DNA from: Enterobacteria phage mEp237
Sequence record: NC_019704.1
DNA: 44,375 nucleotides
Direction: 5' to 3' (one strand)
The notes under the pieces are model-generated. The model saw nothing but the letters and a program-made list of their open reading frames with translations. It ran no database searches and was not told the origin of the DNA. The position numbers and the translations under genes are program-made. The first letter of the stretch is position 1. Every line of letters starts with the position of its first letter. Of this stretch, positions 7,461 to 41,793 are shown piece by piece.

Positions 7461-7814
7461 ATGGCTGATTTCGATAATCTCTTTGACGAGGCCATGTCGC
7501 GAGCTGATAGCGCTATCCGTGGTGTGATGGGCACAGAGGCAAAGGTGATGTCAGGCGCTTTGTCAGGTGCCACCCTGGTCGGTGTATTCGATGATCCAGA
7601 AAATATCGGATATGCCGGTGCCGGGATTCGTGTTGAAGGAACCAGCCCGACCCTGTTTGTGGAAACCGCCACTGTCAGGCAGCTGCAGCGTATGGACACG
7701 CTGACGATTAACGGTCGGCAATTCTGGGTTGAACGTATTGGTCCGGATGACTGTGGCTCCTGTCATATCTGTCTGGGTAACGGCTCTCCACCTGCATCTT
7801 CGCGTCGCCGTTAA
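7461..7814 (+). CDS. FII: Head-tail connector protein FII homolog
   Basis: 117 aa, same length as lambda FII; N-terminus MADFDNLFD and conserved GVFDDPENI. Confidence 0.9.
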   Translation: MADFDNLFDEAMSRADSAIRGVMGTEAKVMSGALSGATLVGVFDDPENIGYAGAGIRVEGTSPTLFVETATVRQLQRMDTLTINGRQFWVERIGPDDCGSCHICLGNGSPPASSRRR

Positions 7815-7823
7815 GGAGCGCAT

Positions 7824-8378
7824 ATGTCCATAAAAGGCCTTGAACAGGCCATAGAAAACCTTAACAGCATCAGCAAAACGGCTGTTCCGCGGGCATCGGC
7901 GCAGGCCGTTAACCGCGTGGCAAACCGGGCCGTCAGCCGCAGCGTGGCAGTCGTATCAAAAGATACGCGCGTACCGCGAAAACTGGTAAAGCAACGCGCC
8001 AGGGTGAAGCGTGCGACGGTCAATAGACCTCGTGCACTTATCCGGGTAAACCGGGGAAATTTACCGGCCATTAAACTCGGTACCGCAAGCGTGCGACTTT
8101 CCCGCAGAAAACGGGACAAGAAAGGGGCCAACAGCGTTCTGCGCATAGGGCCATTTCGTTTTCCGGGCGGCTTTATCCAGCAACTTAAAAATGGTCGCTG
8201 GCATGTCATGAGGCGGACTTCAAAACCTCGTTACCCCATTGAAGTGGTCAGCATCCCGCTGGCAGCTCCATTAACTACGGCATTTAAAGAAGAACTGCCG
8301 AAGCTCATGGAGTCAGATATGCCCAAAGAGCTCCGGGCATCCCTTACCAACCAACTCAGGTTAATTCTGACACGATGA
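7824..8378 (+). CDS. Z: Tail completion protein (lambda gpZ homolog)
   Basis: 184 aa; similarity to lambda Z (IKGLEQA...NGRWHVM); position after FII. Confidence 0.88.
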   Translation: MSIKGLEQAIENLNSISKTAVPRASAQAVNRVANRAVSRSVAVVSKDTRVPRKLVKQRARVKRATVNRPRALIRVNRGNLPAIKLGTASVRLSRRKRDKKGANSVLRIGPFRFPGGFIQQLKNGRWHVMRRTSKPRYPIEVVSIPLAAPLTTAFKEELPKLMESDMPKELRASLTNQLRLILTR

Positions 8379-39410: not shown

Positions 39411-40241
39411 ATGAACCTTGAAAACACAGTGAAATACCACTTCGCTAAATCCACACTGATTAGCGATTCTCCGCGCGCTACCGCCTCCGATTCACTGACC
39501 GGTACCGACATAATGGCTGCCATGGGCATGACGCAGGAACGCGCCGCAATGGGTTACAGCGCCTTCCTCGGCAAGATGGGCATAAGCAATAACGACCGGG
39601 ATCGGGCTATCGGACTGCTGGCTGAGTACGCGATGACCAAATGTGACAAGGTTGCCGCGCTGCGTAAGTTGGATTTCGGGGTTAAGCCTCAGGTGATGTA
39701 CCAGTTGGCCACCTTCGCATTTGAGGATTATTCCCGCAGCGCAGCCAGTGTAAAACGGTGCGATTGCTGCAACGGTGAGGGCTTTATTGATGCTGAGGTA
39801 TTCAGTATGAAAACCAATACGCCGGCACATGCAAAAGAAATCATTAAGGCATCAAAAGCGTTTGGTTTGAAGGTGATACCTTCGCAGCACCAAAACAGGC
39901 GTGAGGTAAAAGAGATAACGCGCGTTCTCTGTCCTCAGTGCAAAGGGAAAAAAGCCATCAGTTGCGCATGTAGTGATTGCCGTGGCCGTGGGAAAGCGGT
40001 GAATCAGAAGGAAACGAAGCAGCAAGGCGTTCCAGTATTCAGCACCTGCAAGCGCTGTGGCGGTCGCGGATATGAGCGCATCCCGTCAACTGAGGCCCAC
40101 GCAGCTGTTTGCCAGATTACGGATGTAATCAGCCTGGATACGTGGAAGAAGTCCGTTAAACCGTTCTATGATCAGCTGATTACGAAATTCGATATTGAAG
40201 AGGCATGGGCAGAAAAACAGCTTAAGCAGATAACGCGGTAA
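39411..40241 (+). CDS. Putative late-gene antiterminator (Q-like, Cys-rich zinc-finger type)
   Basis: 276 aa at the Q position between rusA and the lysis cassette; CxxC repeats (CDCCNGEG, CPQCKGKK, CACSDCRGRG, CKRCGGRG); family assigned by position and Cys pattern. Confidence 0.65.
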   Translation: MNLENTVKYHFAKSTLISDSPRATASDSLTGTDIMAAMGMTQERAAMGYSAFLGKMGISNNDRDRAIGLLAEYAMTKCDKVAALRKLDFGVKPQVMYQLATFAFEDYSRSAASVKRCDCCNGEGFIDAEVFSMKTNTPAHAKEIIKASKAFGLKVIPSQHQNRREVKEITRVLCPQCKGKKAISCACSDCRGRGKAVNQKETKQQGVPVFSTCKRCGGRGYERIPSTEAHAAVCQITDVISLDTWKKSVKPFYDQLITKFDIEEAWAEKQLKQITR

Positions 40242-40337: not shown

Positions 40338-40368
40338 AAGCCCTGCGGATAACACCGTGGGGCTTTTG
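40338..40368 (+). terminator. Candidate late terminator (tR'-like) downstream of Q
   Basis: Interrupted stem AAGCCC-TG-CGG / CCG-TG-GGGCTT with loop ATAACA, followed by TTTT, about 100 bp after the Q stop. Confidence 0.5.
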
Positions 40369-40708
40369 CGTTTCTGGAGGGTAAGAAAATGCACCAGTAA
40401 ACGGATAGACCGCAGCCGATAGGCAAATCCGCAGTCGTGATGCGGTCCCGAGTCTCCATGAGAGCCAGATGCAGGTACGAACTGCAACACACACTGGTTA
40501 GGGTTAATAAAGAAGAGGTGTGCCGGTACTCCAGAACGATCGCCAATCGTTCTCCGGTTAGAGGTGAGGGATTCATGAGATACCCCTGACTACGGTCTCA
40601 AAGGCATGAGCGCGGCCACTGCGAGAGTGTGGTAAGCAACAGAATAGTAATTCACAGGCCCCTTATGTAAATGCTATAAAAGCGGACTATTGAAAAGGAG
40701 AGTTCGCT

Positions 40709-41350
40709 ATGTCAAAAACCTTTGAGCAAATGAAACTTAATTTTATTTATTTGCACGAATTATGGTTGTTAACTCATTCGATAAAAACACGCTGTGAAGA
40801 GCTCTTTCATGAGACACCACTTCCTGATGCTGGTTACTACTTTAAAATTGATTACAATATTCATATATTAATAAATAGTATTCTTTCAGATGCGGCTAAC
40901 GTCAAGAAACTAATCGCAGTTCCTAAAAATCAGACTAGGGAAGAATCCCCTGAACAATTCAGATTGCATATTGAGCGAAGTAATTACCTTCAAGAAAAAA
41001 TAAAAGATATTGAAATTAAGGAAATTAATTCCGTGAGGGTGAGAAACACCTTGCAACACTTCGATGAGTATTTAGATCAGCTAAACATTGATGTTACAGC
41101 AGGGAAGATGAAAGGTCATGGTATTGCAGTTTATAATTTTGTGATCTCCCACTGGAAGGCAATCAACCCTAGGCCATATCCGATAAGGTTATATGTTTGT
41201 GAGGAAAAAACATACTATAATATGAAGGCGTCAATTAACTTAGAAAAAGTATACAATGAGGCTTTTCAGATTAATGAGGTAATCCGTAAAGAAATAAATA
41301 AAGAAGCTGGTGCAGAGCCTGGTAGCTTTATGGTTCCTTTAAACTTTTAA
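40709..41350 (+). CDS. AT-rich moron protein with an Rx4H (HEPN-like) motif; function unknown
   Basis: 213 aa; strong RBS AAAGGAGAG; low GC against the backbone; R-N-T-L-Q-H at residues 112-117 (nt 41042-41059); own downstream terminator. Confidence 0.7.
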   Translation: MSKTFEQMKLNFIYLHELWLLTHSIKTRCEELFHETPLPDAGYYFKIDYNIHILINSILSDAANVKKLIAVPKNQTREESPEQFRLHIERSNYLQEKIKDIEIKEINSVRVRNTLQHFDEYLDQLNIDVTAGKMKGHGIAVYNFVISHWKAINPRPYPIRLYVCEEKTYYNMKASINLEKVYNEAFQINEVIRKEINKEAGAEPGSFMVPLNF

Positions 41351-41377
41351 ACTTTTAAACTTTATAATTCTATTAAC

Positions 41378-41402
41378 TGCCCCGTAATAGCGGGGCTTTT
41401 TT
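41378..41402 (+). terminator. Intrinsic terminator after the moron gene
   Basis: Stem GCCCCG / CGGGGC, loop TAATAG, then a 6-T run. Confidence 0.7.
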
Positions 41403-41514
41403 ATTTCAGGCTTCCGGGAATCATCCGCTACGTGCTTTGTTGATAAATCCAGCCCGTGAAGCCTGACCCTTTTCATACACACACAGCGCCATCCGAAGAA
41501 TCGGAGGTGAGGCT

Positions 41515-41793
41515 ATGACCAGAATGAGCACCATTTACAGCAGACTTTCATATGGAACAGGCACCACGCTGACCGGCTGCGGTGTATCAGCGAAGGCATA
41601 TGCCGAAACAGCAAAAACAGCAAAAGAGGTGTCCTGGATGTTGGCCGACAGAATTGCAGGGTTAAGCCTGAGCGACTGGGCAATTATTGTCGGTATCGCA
41701 TGCACGGTAATCACCTGTGCAGTGAACTGGTATTTCCGCTGGAAAGAACGGGAGGATCGGCGCAATGGCTATGTCTCTAAAGCTGAAGAATAA
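41515..41793 (+). CDS. Holin (likely pinholin, dual-start motif)
   Basis: 92 aa; GGAGGTGAGG RBS; two Met codons (MTRMSTIY) as in holin/antiholin pairs; TM segment LSDWAIIVGIACTVITCAV; directly upstream of a SAR endolysin. Confidence 0.75.
   Translation: MTRMSTIYSRLSYGTGTTLTGCGVSAKAYAETAKTAKEVSWMLADRIAGLSLSDWAIIVGIACTVITCAVNWYFRWKEREDRRNGYVSKAEE

Follow-up and report, generated by a model that had tools for sequence, protein, structure and literature searches.

An AT-rich cargo gene between Q and the holin of phage mEp237 belongs to a mobile, unannotated protein family with a conserved R-x4-H motif and encodes a candidate abortive-infection RNase

Between the late-gene antiterminator Q and the holin of Enterobacteria phage mEp237 lies a small AT-rich gene, which an earlier note made from the sequence alone described as a moron, hypothesising that it encodes an abortive-infection RNase of the HEPN type. 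This raises two questions: is the gene an independent passenger of the phage, and does its product carry more than a chance copy of a short motif? We analysed a window consisting of 44,375 nt of phage sequence (NC_019704.1), to which all positions refer unless a comparison locus (L) is named.

The ORF list of the window places the gene at 40709-41350 on the plus strand, with an ATG start and a product of 213 aa whose family, defined by the ORF call, alignments and a structural model, is unannotated. The strong ribosome-binding site claimed for it is present: AAGGAG (40695-40700, +) can be read 8 nt before the ATG, and an upstream alignment shows that GGAGAGTTCGCTATG at this site is kept among homologues. 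As had also been noted, the GC content of the ORF (0.338; 0.327 at third codon positions) is far below that of Q (0.511), the holin/lysozyme region (0.536) and the window as a whole (0.514). We rejected a non-functional, spurious ORF because the protein is conserved across phyla.

The surroundings are those of a lambdoid late region. Q (39411-40241, +), which lies outside the moron, is identical to a gene annotated as antitermination protein in a 99.6% identical E. coli prophage (L002), for which the RefSeq annotation gives antitermination protein, hypothetical protein, phage holin and lysozyme. The terminator scan detected a tR'-like intrinsic terminator of the backbone downstream of Q (40338-40365, +), and the lysis cassette begins with an ORF at 41515-41793 (+), annotated as phage holin in both L002 and strain H6 (L048).

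The gene itself is rare among complete E. coli genomes (7 of 5426), and related phages show what else can occupy its place. Strain H6 has the same flanks, from the end of Q to the holin, with a conserved non-coding RNA element alone between them. Phage HK225 shares the Q end and holin and has a reverse-strand 136-aa ORF at the site instead, and strain W619, again with the same Q end and holin, has a 189-aa ORF together with a 51-aa ORF. Since its relatives hold nothing or unrelated genes there, the Q-holin gap is a cargo hot spot, and the proposal of a moron-type gene in a variable site holds: close relatives differ by its presence or absence at the same position, and its base composition deviates from that of the phage. 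A degenerate version of the tRNA cluster found in Stx phages was ruled out as an explanation for the gap because the window contains no tRNA genes. The arrangement resembles that of the classical lambdoid morons of the Q-S site (stx, bor-type) in position and in architecture: an AT-rich insert of variable content, flanked by promoter-like and terminator sequences, between tR' and the lysis genes. It differs in what is carried, which is a toxin or outer-membrane factor in the stx and bor-type cases and an intracellular enzyme-like protein here.

Other cargo of these hot spots was recorded alongside. The HK225 protein (HK225_067; L003 3137-3547, minus strand) is coiled-coil-like, the W619 pair spans L049 1704-2406, and strain C3728 carries an S1 family peptidase (L060 2798-3595); no match to Pfam or PADLOC defence models was found for any of them. 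L002 also has, in the interval from its lysis cassette to its terminase and ~3.2 kb downstream of the ORF start, a gene annotated as SDH family Clp fold serine proteinase (L002 9256-10101), a second cargo gene at the other hot spot.

Comparison with the relatives also locates the edges of the insertion, with a left breakpoint at ~40380-40455 and a right breakpoint at 41390-41393, inside a terminator hairpin. Cargo-specific DNA extends from ~40633 to 41389, and the sequence from ~41390, the 3' half of the hairpin, is backbone. L048 has tR', then the conserved non-coding element, then directly a near-identical terminator, GCCTCGCTTATGCGGGGCTTTT, and then the holin region, which indicates that the cargo of the window was inserted between the RNA element and this element's terminator. 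The earlier claim that the gene has its own terminator is therefore half right: the terminator scan did find a strong hairpin, GCCCCGTAATAGCGGGGC, at 41379-41396 with a T-run after it (intrinsic terminator, 41379-41402, +), its 5' arm contributed by the cargo, while the 3' arm and T-run are backbone and shared with relatives that lack the gene. In strain GZ2408P the same block (40359-41473 here) is flanked by a different Q and a different holin, so the block moves as a unit.

Two further observations concern the 3' end of the gene. A tandem repeat, TAAACTTT, runs across the stop codon in three copies (41336-41366) and is ~32 nt longer in strain GZ2408P (L001 6972-7040), probably through slippage. 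Rfam matches to GcvB (E = 0.097) and RsaOG (E = 0.37) at 41271-41405 (+) were discarded as artefacts: they are sub-threshold, overlap the end of the ORF and the terminator, and most likely stem from the hairpin of the latter.

Upstream, a promoter-like element can be read by eye at 40651-40680 (+), consisting of TTCACA (40651-40656), an 18-nt spacer and TGcTATAAA (40672-40680). Because its -10 departs from the consensus by ending in A, the block was missed by the consensus scan. The block ATTCaCAG...AATGnTAtA and the ribosome-binding site are kept upstream of homologues with 46-69% protein identity in other phage contexts, among which the DNA further upstream is unrelated. This pattern supports a putative promoter that travels with the cargo gene. 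Downstream of the Citrobacter homologue lies a hairpin that shows compensatory changes, and together the promoter-like block, the ribosome-binding site and this hairpin support the cargo as an autonomous unit.

The stretch at 40382-40632 lies outside the moron and is a separate conserved non-coding element, just 3' of which the cargo is inserted. Conservation and compensatory changes delimit within it a structured backbone RNA of ~230 nt (40403-40632, +). In a 70-sequence alignment, 15 of the 30 predicted pairs show compensatory double changes; the z-score for single-sequence folding is an unremarkable -0.95, and comparison with Rfam gave no match at E ≤ 10. In many phages GGGGCTTTTGCGTTTCT, the tail of the tR'-like terminator, precedes the element. 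Also in the backbone, directly 5' of the RNA, sequence and alignment identify a strong Shine-Dalgarno GGAGGG with a 3-codon mini-ORF, ATG CAC CAG TAA (40389-40400; whole feature 40376-40400, +). A Shine-Dalgarno with an ORF of one to three codons recurs at this place in most of the 70 aligned elements, with codons that vary. The mini-ORF is reminiscent of the lambda bar minigenes.

Of 5426 E. coli genomes, 41 contain the RNA element, and the annotation is blank at every match listed; its 30-nt core occurs in at least 119 IMG/VR contigs. Copies include those at L048 1600-1850, in L058-L064 and in L065-L183. They lie at three kinds of site and are always oriented with transcription: some follow directly on tR', where the late operon starts, others follow directly on the repressor gene, where the early-left operon starts, and others separate the lysis genes from the terminase. 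The put RNAs of phage HK022 act in processive antitermination, and from position only we would guess at a put-like antitermination or leader role for this element. If functional, the RNA would add a new regulatory element to the late and early operons of lambdoid phages, and its presence next to the gene would also explain the exact landing place of the cargo.

Overall the gene is rare and patchy. Searches of 185,579 species genomes returned, outside enterics, 37 loci in at least six phyla, with representatives in Gamma-, Beta-, Epsilon- and Deltaproteobacteria, Bacillota, Actinomycetota, Chloroflexi and Bacteroidota. In enterobacteria it is always found in lambdoid prophages and in the same orientation as the late genes, at one of two sites: between Q/tR' and the holin (the window and L001) or between Rz and the terminase (L004-L006 and L051-L057). 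Eight IMG/VR contigs contain the gene, and tblastn against 50,697 genomes of sequenced phage isolates gave no match to it. Elsewhere it can be a cassette: in a Lysobacter metagenome-assembled genome (L017 1-9730) the gene sits alone in one 772-bp cassette between attC-like repeats, in an array of 19 such repeats spaced 344-772 bp apart, and similar arrangements are seen at L018 7900-8710 and, beside an integrase, at L007 5758-8737. A conserved neighbour was not found: among the 137 flanking ORFs of the 37 loci there are hits to 85 Pfam families, none of which occurs in more than four ORFs. Together with the single-gene cassette of L017, this leaves a gene with no conserved partner. The sequence comparisons support a gene that is autonomous and mobile, as would be expected of a single-gene defence or toxin module.

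This distribution bears on two readings that differ from a defence function. The gene could serve the phage itself, transcribed as part of the late operon and encoding a counter-defence or host-takeover nuclease that breaks down host RNA or immune signals in the lytic cycle and gives the lysogen no protection. Its invariable co-orientation with the late genes, immediately ahead of or behind the lysis cassette, fits such a lytic-phase function, as does the neighbourhood in L004-L006, another prophage lineage, where a 56%-identical homologue lies in the Rz-terminase gap directly downstream of an Acb2/Tad1-family gene (7638-7931); Acb2/Tad1 proteins are sponges that counter CBASS and Thoeris. However, most non-enteric members are in non-phage settings, integron cassette arrays included, where a helper of the lytic cycle makes little sense; the gene is accompanied by a conserved promoter-like block and by a terminator; and the tblastn search of sequenced isolates found no copy. 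We regard a lytic-phase role as quite improbable.

Alternatively, the product could be an addiction toxin that is constitutively active, is kept in check by a small protein or RNA so far overlooked, and stabilises the cassette or prophage instead of detecting phage. Toxin-antitoxin modules are known from integron arrays (PMC3710099), and the flanking ORFs in our set include HigB-type toxins and HTH proteins, as is typical of toxin-antitoxin-rich cassette arrays. We rejected a conserved partner or antitoxin, however, as we found no neighbour that recurs, and the 772-bp cassette of L017 leaves no room for a partner between its attC-like repeats. The RNA element does not fill this role either: homologues that occupy the Rz-terminase site lack it as a neighbour, which rules it out as a partner of the protein. 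An addiction toxin is an explanation to which we attach very little probability.

We then turn to the protein. The motif reported for it, R-N-T-L-Q-H, is indeed found at residues 112-117. As the earlier note itself cautioned, a single motif of this kind may arise by chance: 64% of shuffles that keep the composition of the protein contain Rx4-6H and 4.7% contain R[NDH]x3H, and a second, unconserved Rx5H occurs at residue 28 of the protein. The bare motif is for this reason weak evidence, and what evidence the motif offers lies in its conservation. A word-indexed search returned 28 homologues, all unnamed and without Pfam domains, and R112 and H117 are invariant in 22 close homologues. An HMMER scan of 1.84 billion representatives expanded the family to 244 clusters; 150 of them were listed, and the majority of these have a length of about 200-260 aa.

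The deep alignment derived for the family contains 121 sequences with a mean column identity of 21%. Against this divergence, R112 and H117 are each 99% conserved with a fixed spacing of four residues, and position 113 is N (88%), H (9%) or D (2%). E116 (90%; Q in the enteric clade), D123 (98%) and R90 (99%) are likewise maintained, and the full set of nearly invariant residues is Y14, E17, R90, R112, E116, H117, D119, D123 and Y162, with VRNSLEHFDE as the consensus block. HEPN RNases have an R-polar-x3-H signature with N, D or H after the R (PMC3710099), and the family shows both the conserved Rx4-6H and the polar residue directly after the R. The alignment supports the R-x4-H motif as the functional core of the family. 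A conserved acidic residue of the Ex3[KR] kind, which is frequent but not universal in helix 2 of HEPN domains (PMC3710099), was not seen: helix 2 of the protein (residues 49-69) has no position conserved at 90% or above, and the conserved acidic residues are elsewhere, E17 in helix 1 and E116, D119 and D123 at or after the motif.

Profile searches did not connect the family to known HEPN proteins. When the protein, the consensus and the 121 members were compared with Pfam, NCBIfam, PHROGs and PADLOC by hmmscan, nothing meaningful was returned. None of the 121 members matches a Pfam HEPN model even at E ≤ 10, and the PADLOC hits are scattered noise, with weak Cas13a matches for two members and a CasR match (E = 0.007) for one of the 121, which we also took as noise. 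Sequence and profile searches of the PDB gave no HEPN and at most coiled-coil chance matches, and a second profile search with a diverse alignment reached no annotated relatives. A confident match to some unrelated family, which would have spoken against an RNase of this type, was looked for in the same collections (Pfam, NCBIfam, PHROGs, PADLOC and PDB) and none was found. No mention of WP_016066212 or WP_077581160 was found in the literature.

Structure prediction gave a mixed answer. The model obtained with a shallow alignment is mediocre, with a pLDDT of 70, and that obtained with the deep alignment has a pLDDT of 96.9 and a pTM of 0.91. Helices are predicted at residues 11-35, 49-69, 81-97 and 110-130, with a break in the DSSP assignment exactly at H117, and the C-terminal part is predicted to form a 4-stranded sheet (140-177) followed by a helix (178-195). 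In canonical HEPN domains the motif is found at the end of helix 3 or at the distorted helix-3/helix-4 junction (PMC3710099), whereas in the model it opens the fourth helix after a 12-residue loop. Four long helices and a motif at a distorted junction are nevertheless compatible with the HEPN description. The fold itself found no such partner: a Foldseek search of 350,542 PDB chains had a best E of 2.5 and included no HEPN, and the sole match in BFVD, again not a HEPN, was an uncharacterised Gordonia phage protein. No similarity to an established HEPN family, in profile or in structure, was detected by these searches.

Several findings speak for an enzyme with a new, non-HEPN fold, a possibly metal-dependent hydrolase or transferase, in which the R/H pair would form a site with E116, D119, E120, D123, E17 and R90. 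There is no PDB neighbour by Foldseek, no profile link to HEPN families, and the BFVD match is the only one in a structure library; beyond the motif there are five other polar residues that hardly vary; and the model has an extra α/β subdomain. The acidic face made of E116, D119, E120 and D123 could bind a metal instead, which counts against a HEPN-like enzyme. The substrate of such an enzyme could be a nucleotide, a signalling molecule or DNA, and a defence role would still be possible with chemistry other than that of HEPN. On balance we consider this reading unlikely, yet deserving of some weight.

HEPN-like chemistry is also suggested by resemblances to characterised proteins. The closest in organisation is HepS, a solo HEPN abortive-infection protein from the Salmonella prophage Gifsy-1, in which an inactive tetramer is activated by a tail-tip protein and then cleaves tRNA anticodon loops (PMC13043305). 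Both HepS and the protein described here stand alone, without a partner, have ~200 aa and are encoded where a lambdoid prophage carries accessory genes; each has one mid-protein R-x4-H (R100-H105 in HepS, R112-H117 here), and in both cases the homologues have a scattered distribution that reaches from Firmicutes to Enterobacteria. They differ in that HepS lies in the nin region and our gene in the Q-holin or Rz-terminase gap, that our protein has the extra C-terminal sheet-plus-helix subdomain, and that a trigger, a tRNA target and a tetramer are established for HepS alone. HepS was absent among the matches reported by the PDB profile search and by Foldseek, the latter run on a PDB copy of April 2026 in which the presence of the HepS entry is unconfirmed. 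The LT2 copy of Gifsy-1 (NC_010392) has no gene that matches HepS: STM2620 is a DUF1367 protein and STM2616 is antirepressor-like.

A local likeness is seen to the KEN domain in RNase L and Ire1, a circularly permuted HEPN fused to a kinase. The active site of RNase L, checked against PDB sequences, reads FIRNLGEHI[D/N]E and shares with VRNSLEHFDE the R, the N, the E-H and the acidic pair that follows; the likeness spans only ~10 residues, the overall search is non-significant and we claim no homology. The prophage-encoded HEPN RNase Tha-1 of staphylococcal phage 80alpha, whose activator is a structural protein from the incoming phage (PMC11087260), has an RNxxxH motif, confirmed in its sequence as RNSIMH. 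Tha-1 is larger (301 aa), with a C-terminal HEPN domain and a cognate inhibitor, Ith; used as a HEPN seed, it yielded only three fragments in a homologue search, and hhalign of our family against it gave an uninformative probability of 0.6%. PDB entry 3jrt represents an integron-cassette HEPN family (PMC3710099) and is, like our protein, a small standalone Rx4-6H protein from a family borne on cassettes. It was missed by both the profile search and Foldseek, and therefore belongs to a different family.

Taken together, the observations make our preferred explanation an RNase of HEPN-like type that, by analogy with HepS, works solo, is activated by a trigger and aborts infection, with a probability of roughly 45%. 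For it speak the motif conservation, the RNase L-like block, the model, the standalone and mobile character of the family, its patchiness and the precedents of HepS and Tha; against it, the family has no detectable similarity to any known HEPN and the position of the motif differs from the canonical one, and further points on this side are the acidic face, the late-gene orientation with the Acb2/Tad1 neighbour, and the non-consensus -10. The original proposal of an abortive-infection RNase is supported to this extent, in the moron, the motif core and the autonomy and mobility of the gene. A single-gene anti-phage suicide nuclease is credible but unproven.

For a HEPN-like RNase of this kind, we envisage the following. 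A self-contained cargo unit, made of a weak putative promoter, a strong ribosome-binding site, one ORF and a terminator, would be expressed in the lysogen from its place in the lambdoid Q-to-holin hot spot. Its product would be an enzyme whose active site has the form R-[N/H/D]-x-x-[E/Q]-H and lies where the fourth helix begins with a kink, most likely carrying out metal-independent RNA cleavage of the HEPN type in a dimer or higher oligomer that joins two motifs. As there is no partner gene, inactivity would come from the protein's own conformation, and the C-terminal sheet-plus-helix subdomain (residues 135-213) is a candidate sensor or oligomerisation module. A product of the infecting phage would switch the protein on, translation would halt and the infection would be aborted, as for HepS.

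A broader scenario, which we hold to be doubtful, combines both novelties of the locus. The protein would found a structurally new enzyme family, without a Foldseek neighbour in the PDB, that reached an RNase-L-like R-N-x-x-E-H catalytic block independently and forms a one-gene, self-sensing anti-phage module hopping between integron cassettes and prophage cargo sites. The adjoining RNA, with its mini-ORF, would represent a class of structured leader RNAs that has not been described before, is widespread at lambdoid operon starts and cargo junctions, and may act in processive antitermination like the put RNAs of HK022.

The protein family is new and unannotated, and the theme of prophage-borne defence by solo nucleases is already known. 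Should the protein prove to be a solo RNase activated by a trigger, Pfam, NCBIfam, PHROGs and PADLOC would have missed a compact defence family altogether. Such a family, spread over at least six phyla by integron cassettes and as prophage cargo, would extend the paradigm of HepS, in which a single protein is both sensor and effector, and the Q-holin and Rz-terminase gaps of enterobacterial prophages would be places to mine for further genes of this kind.
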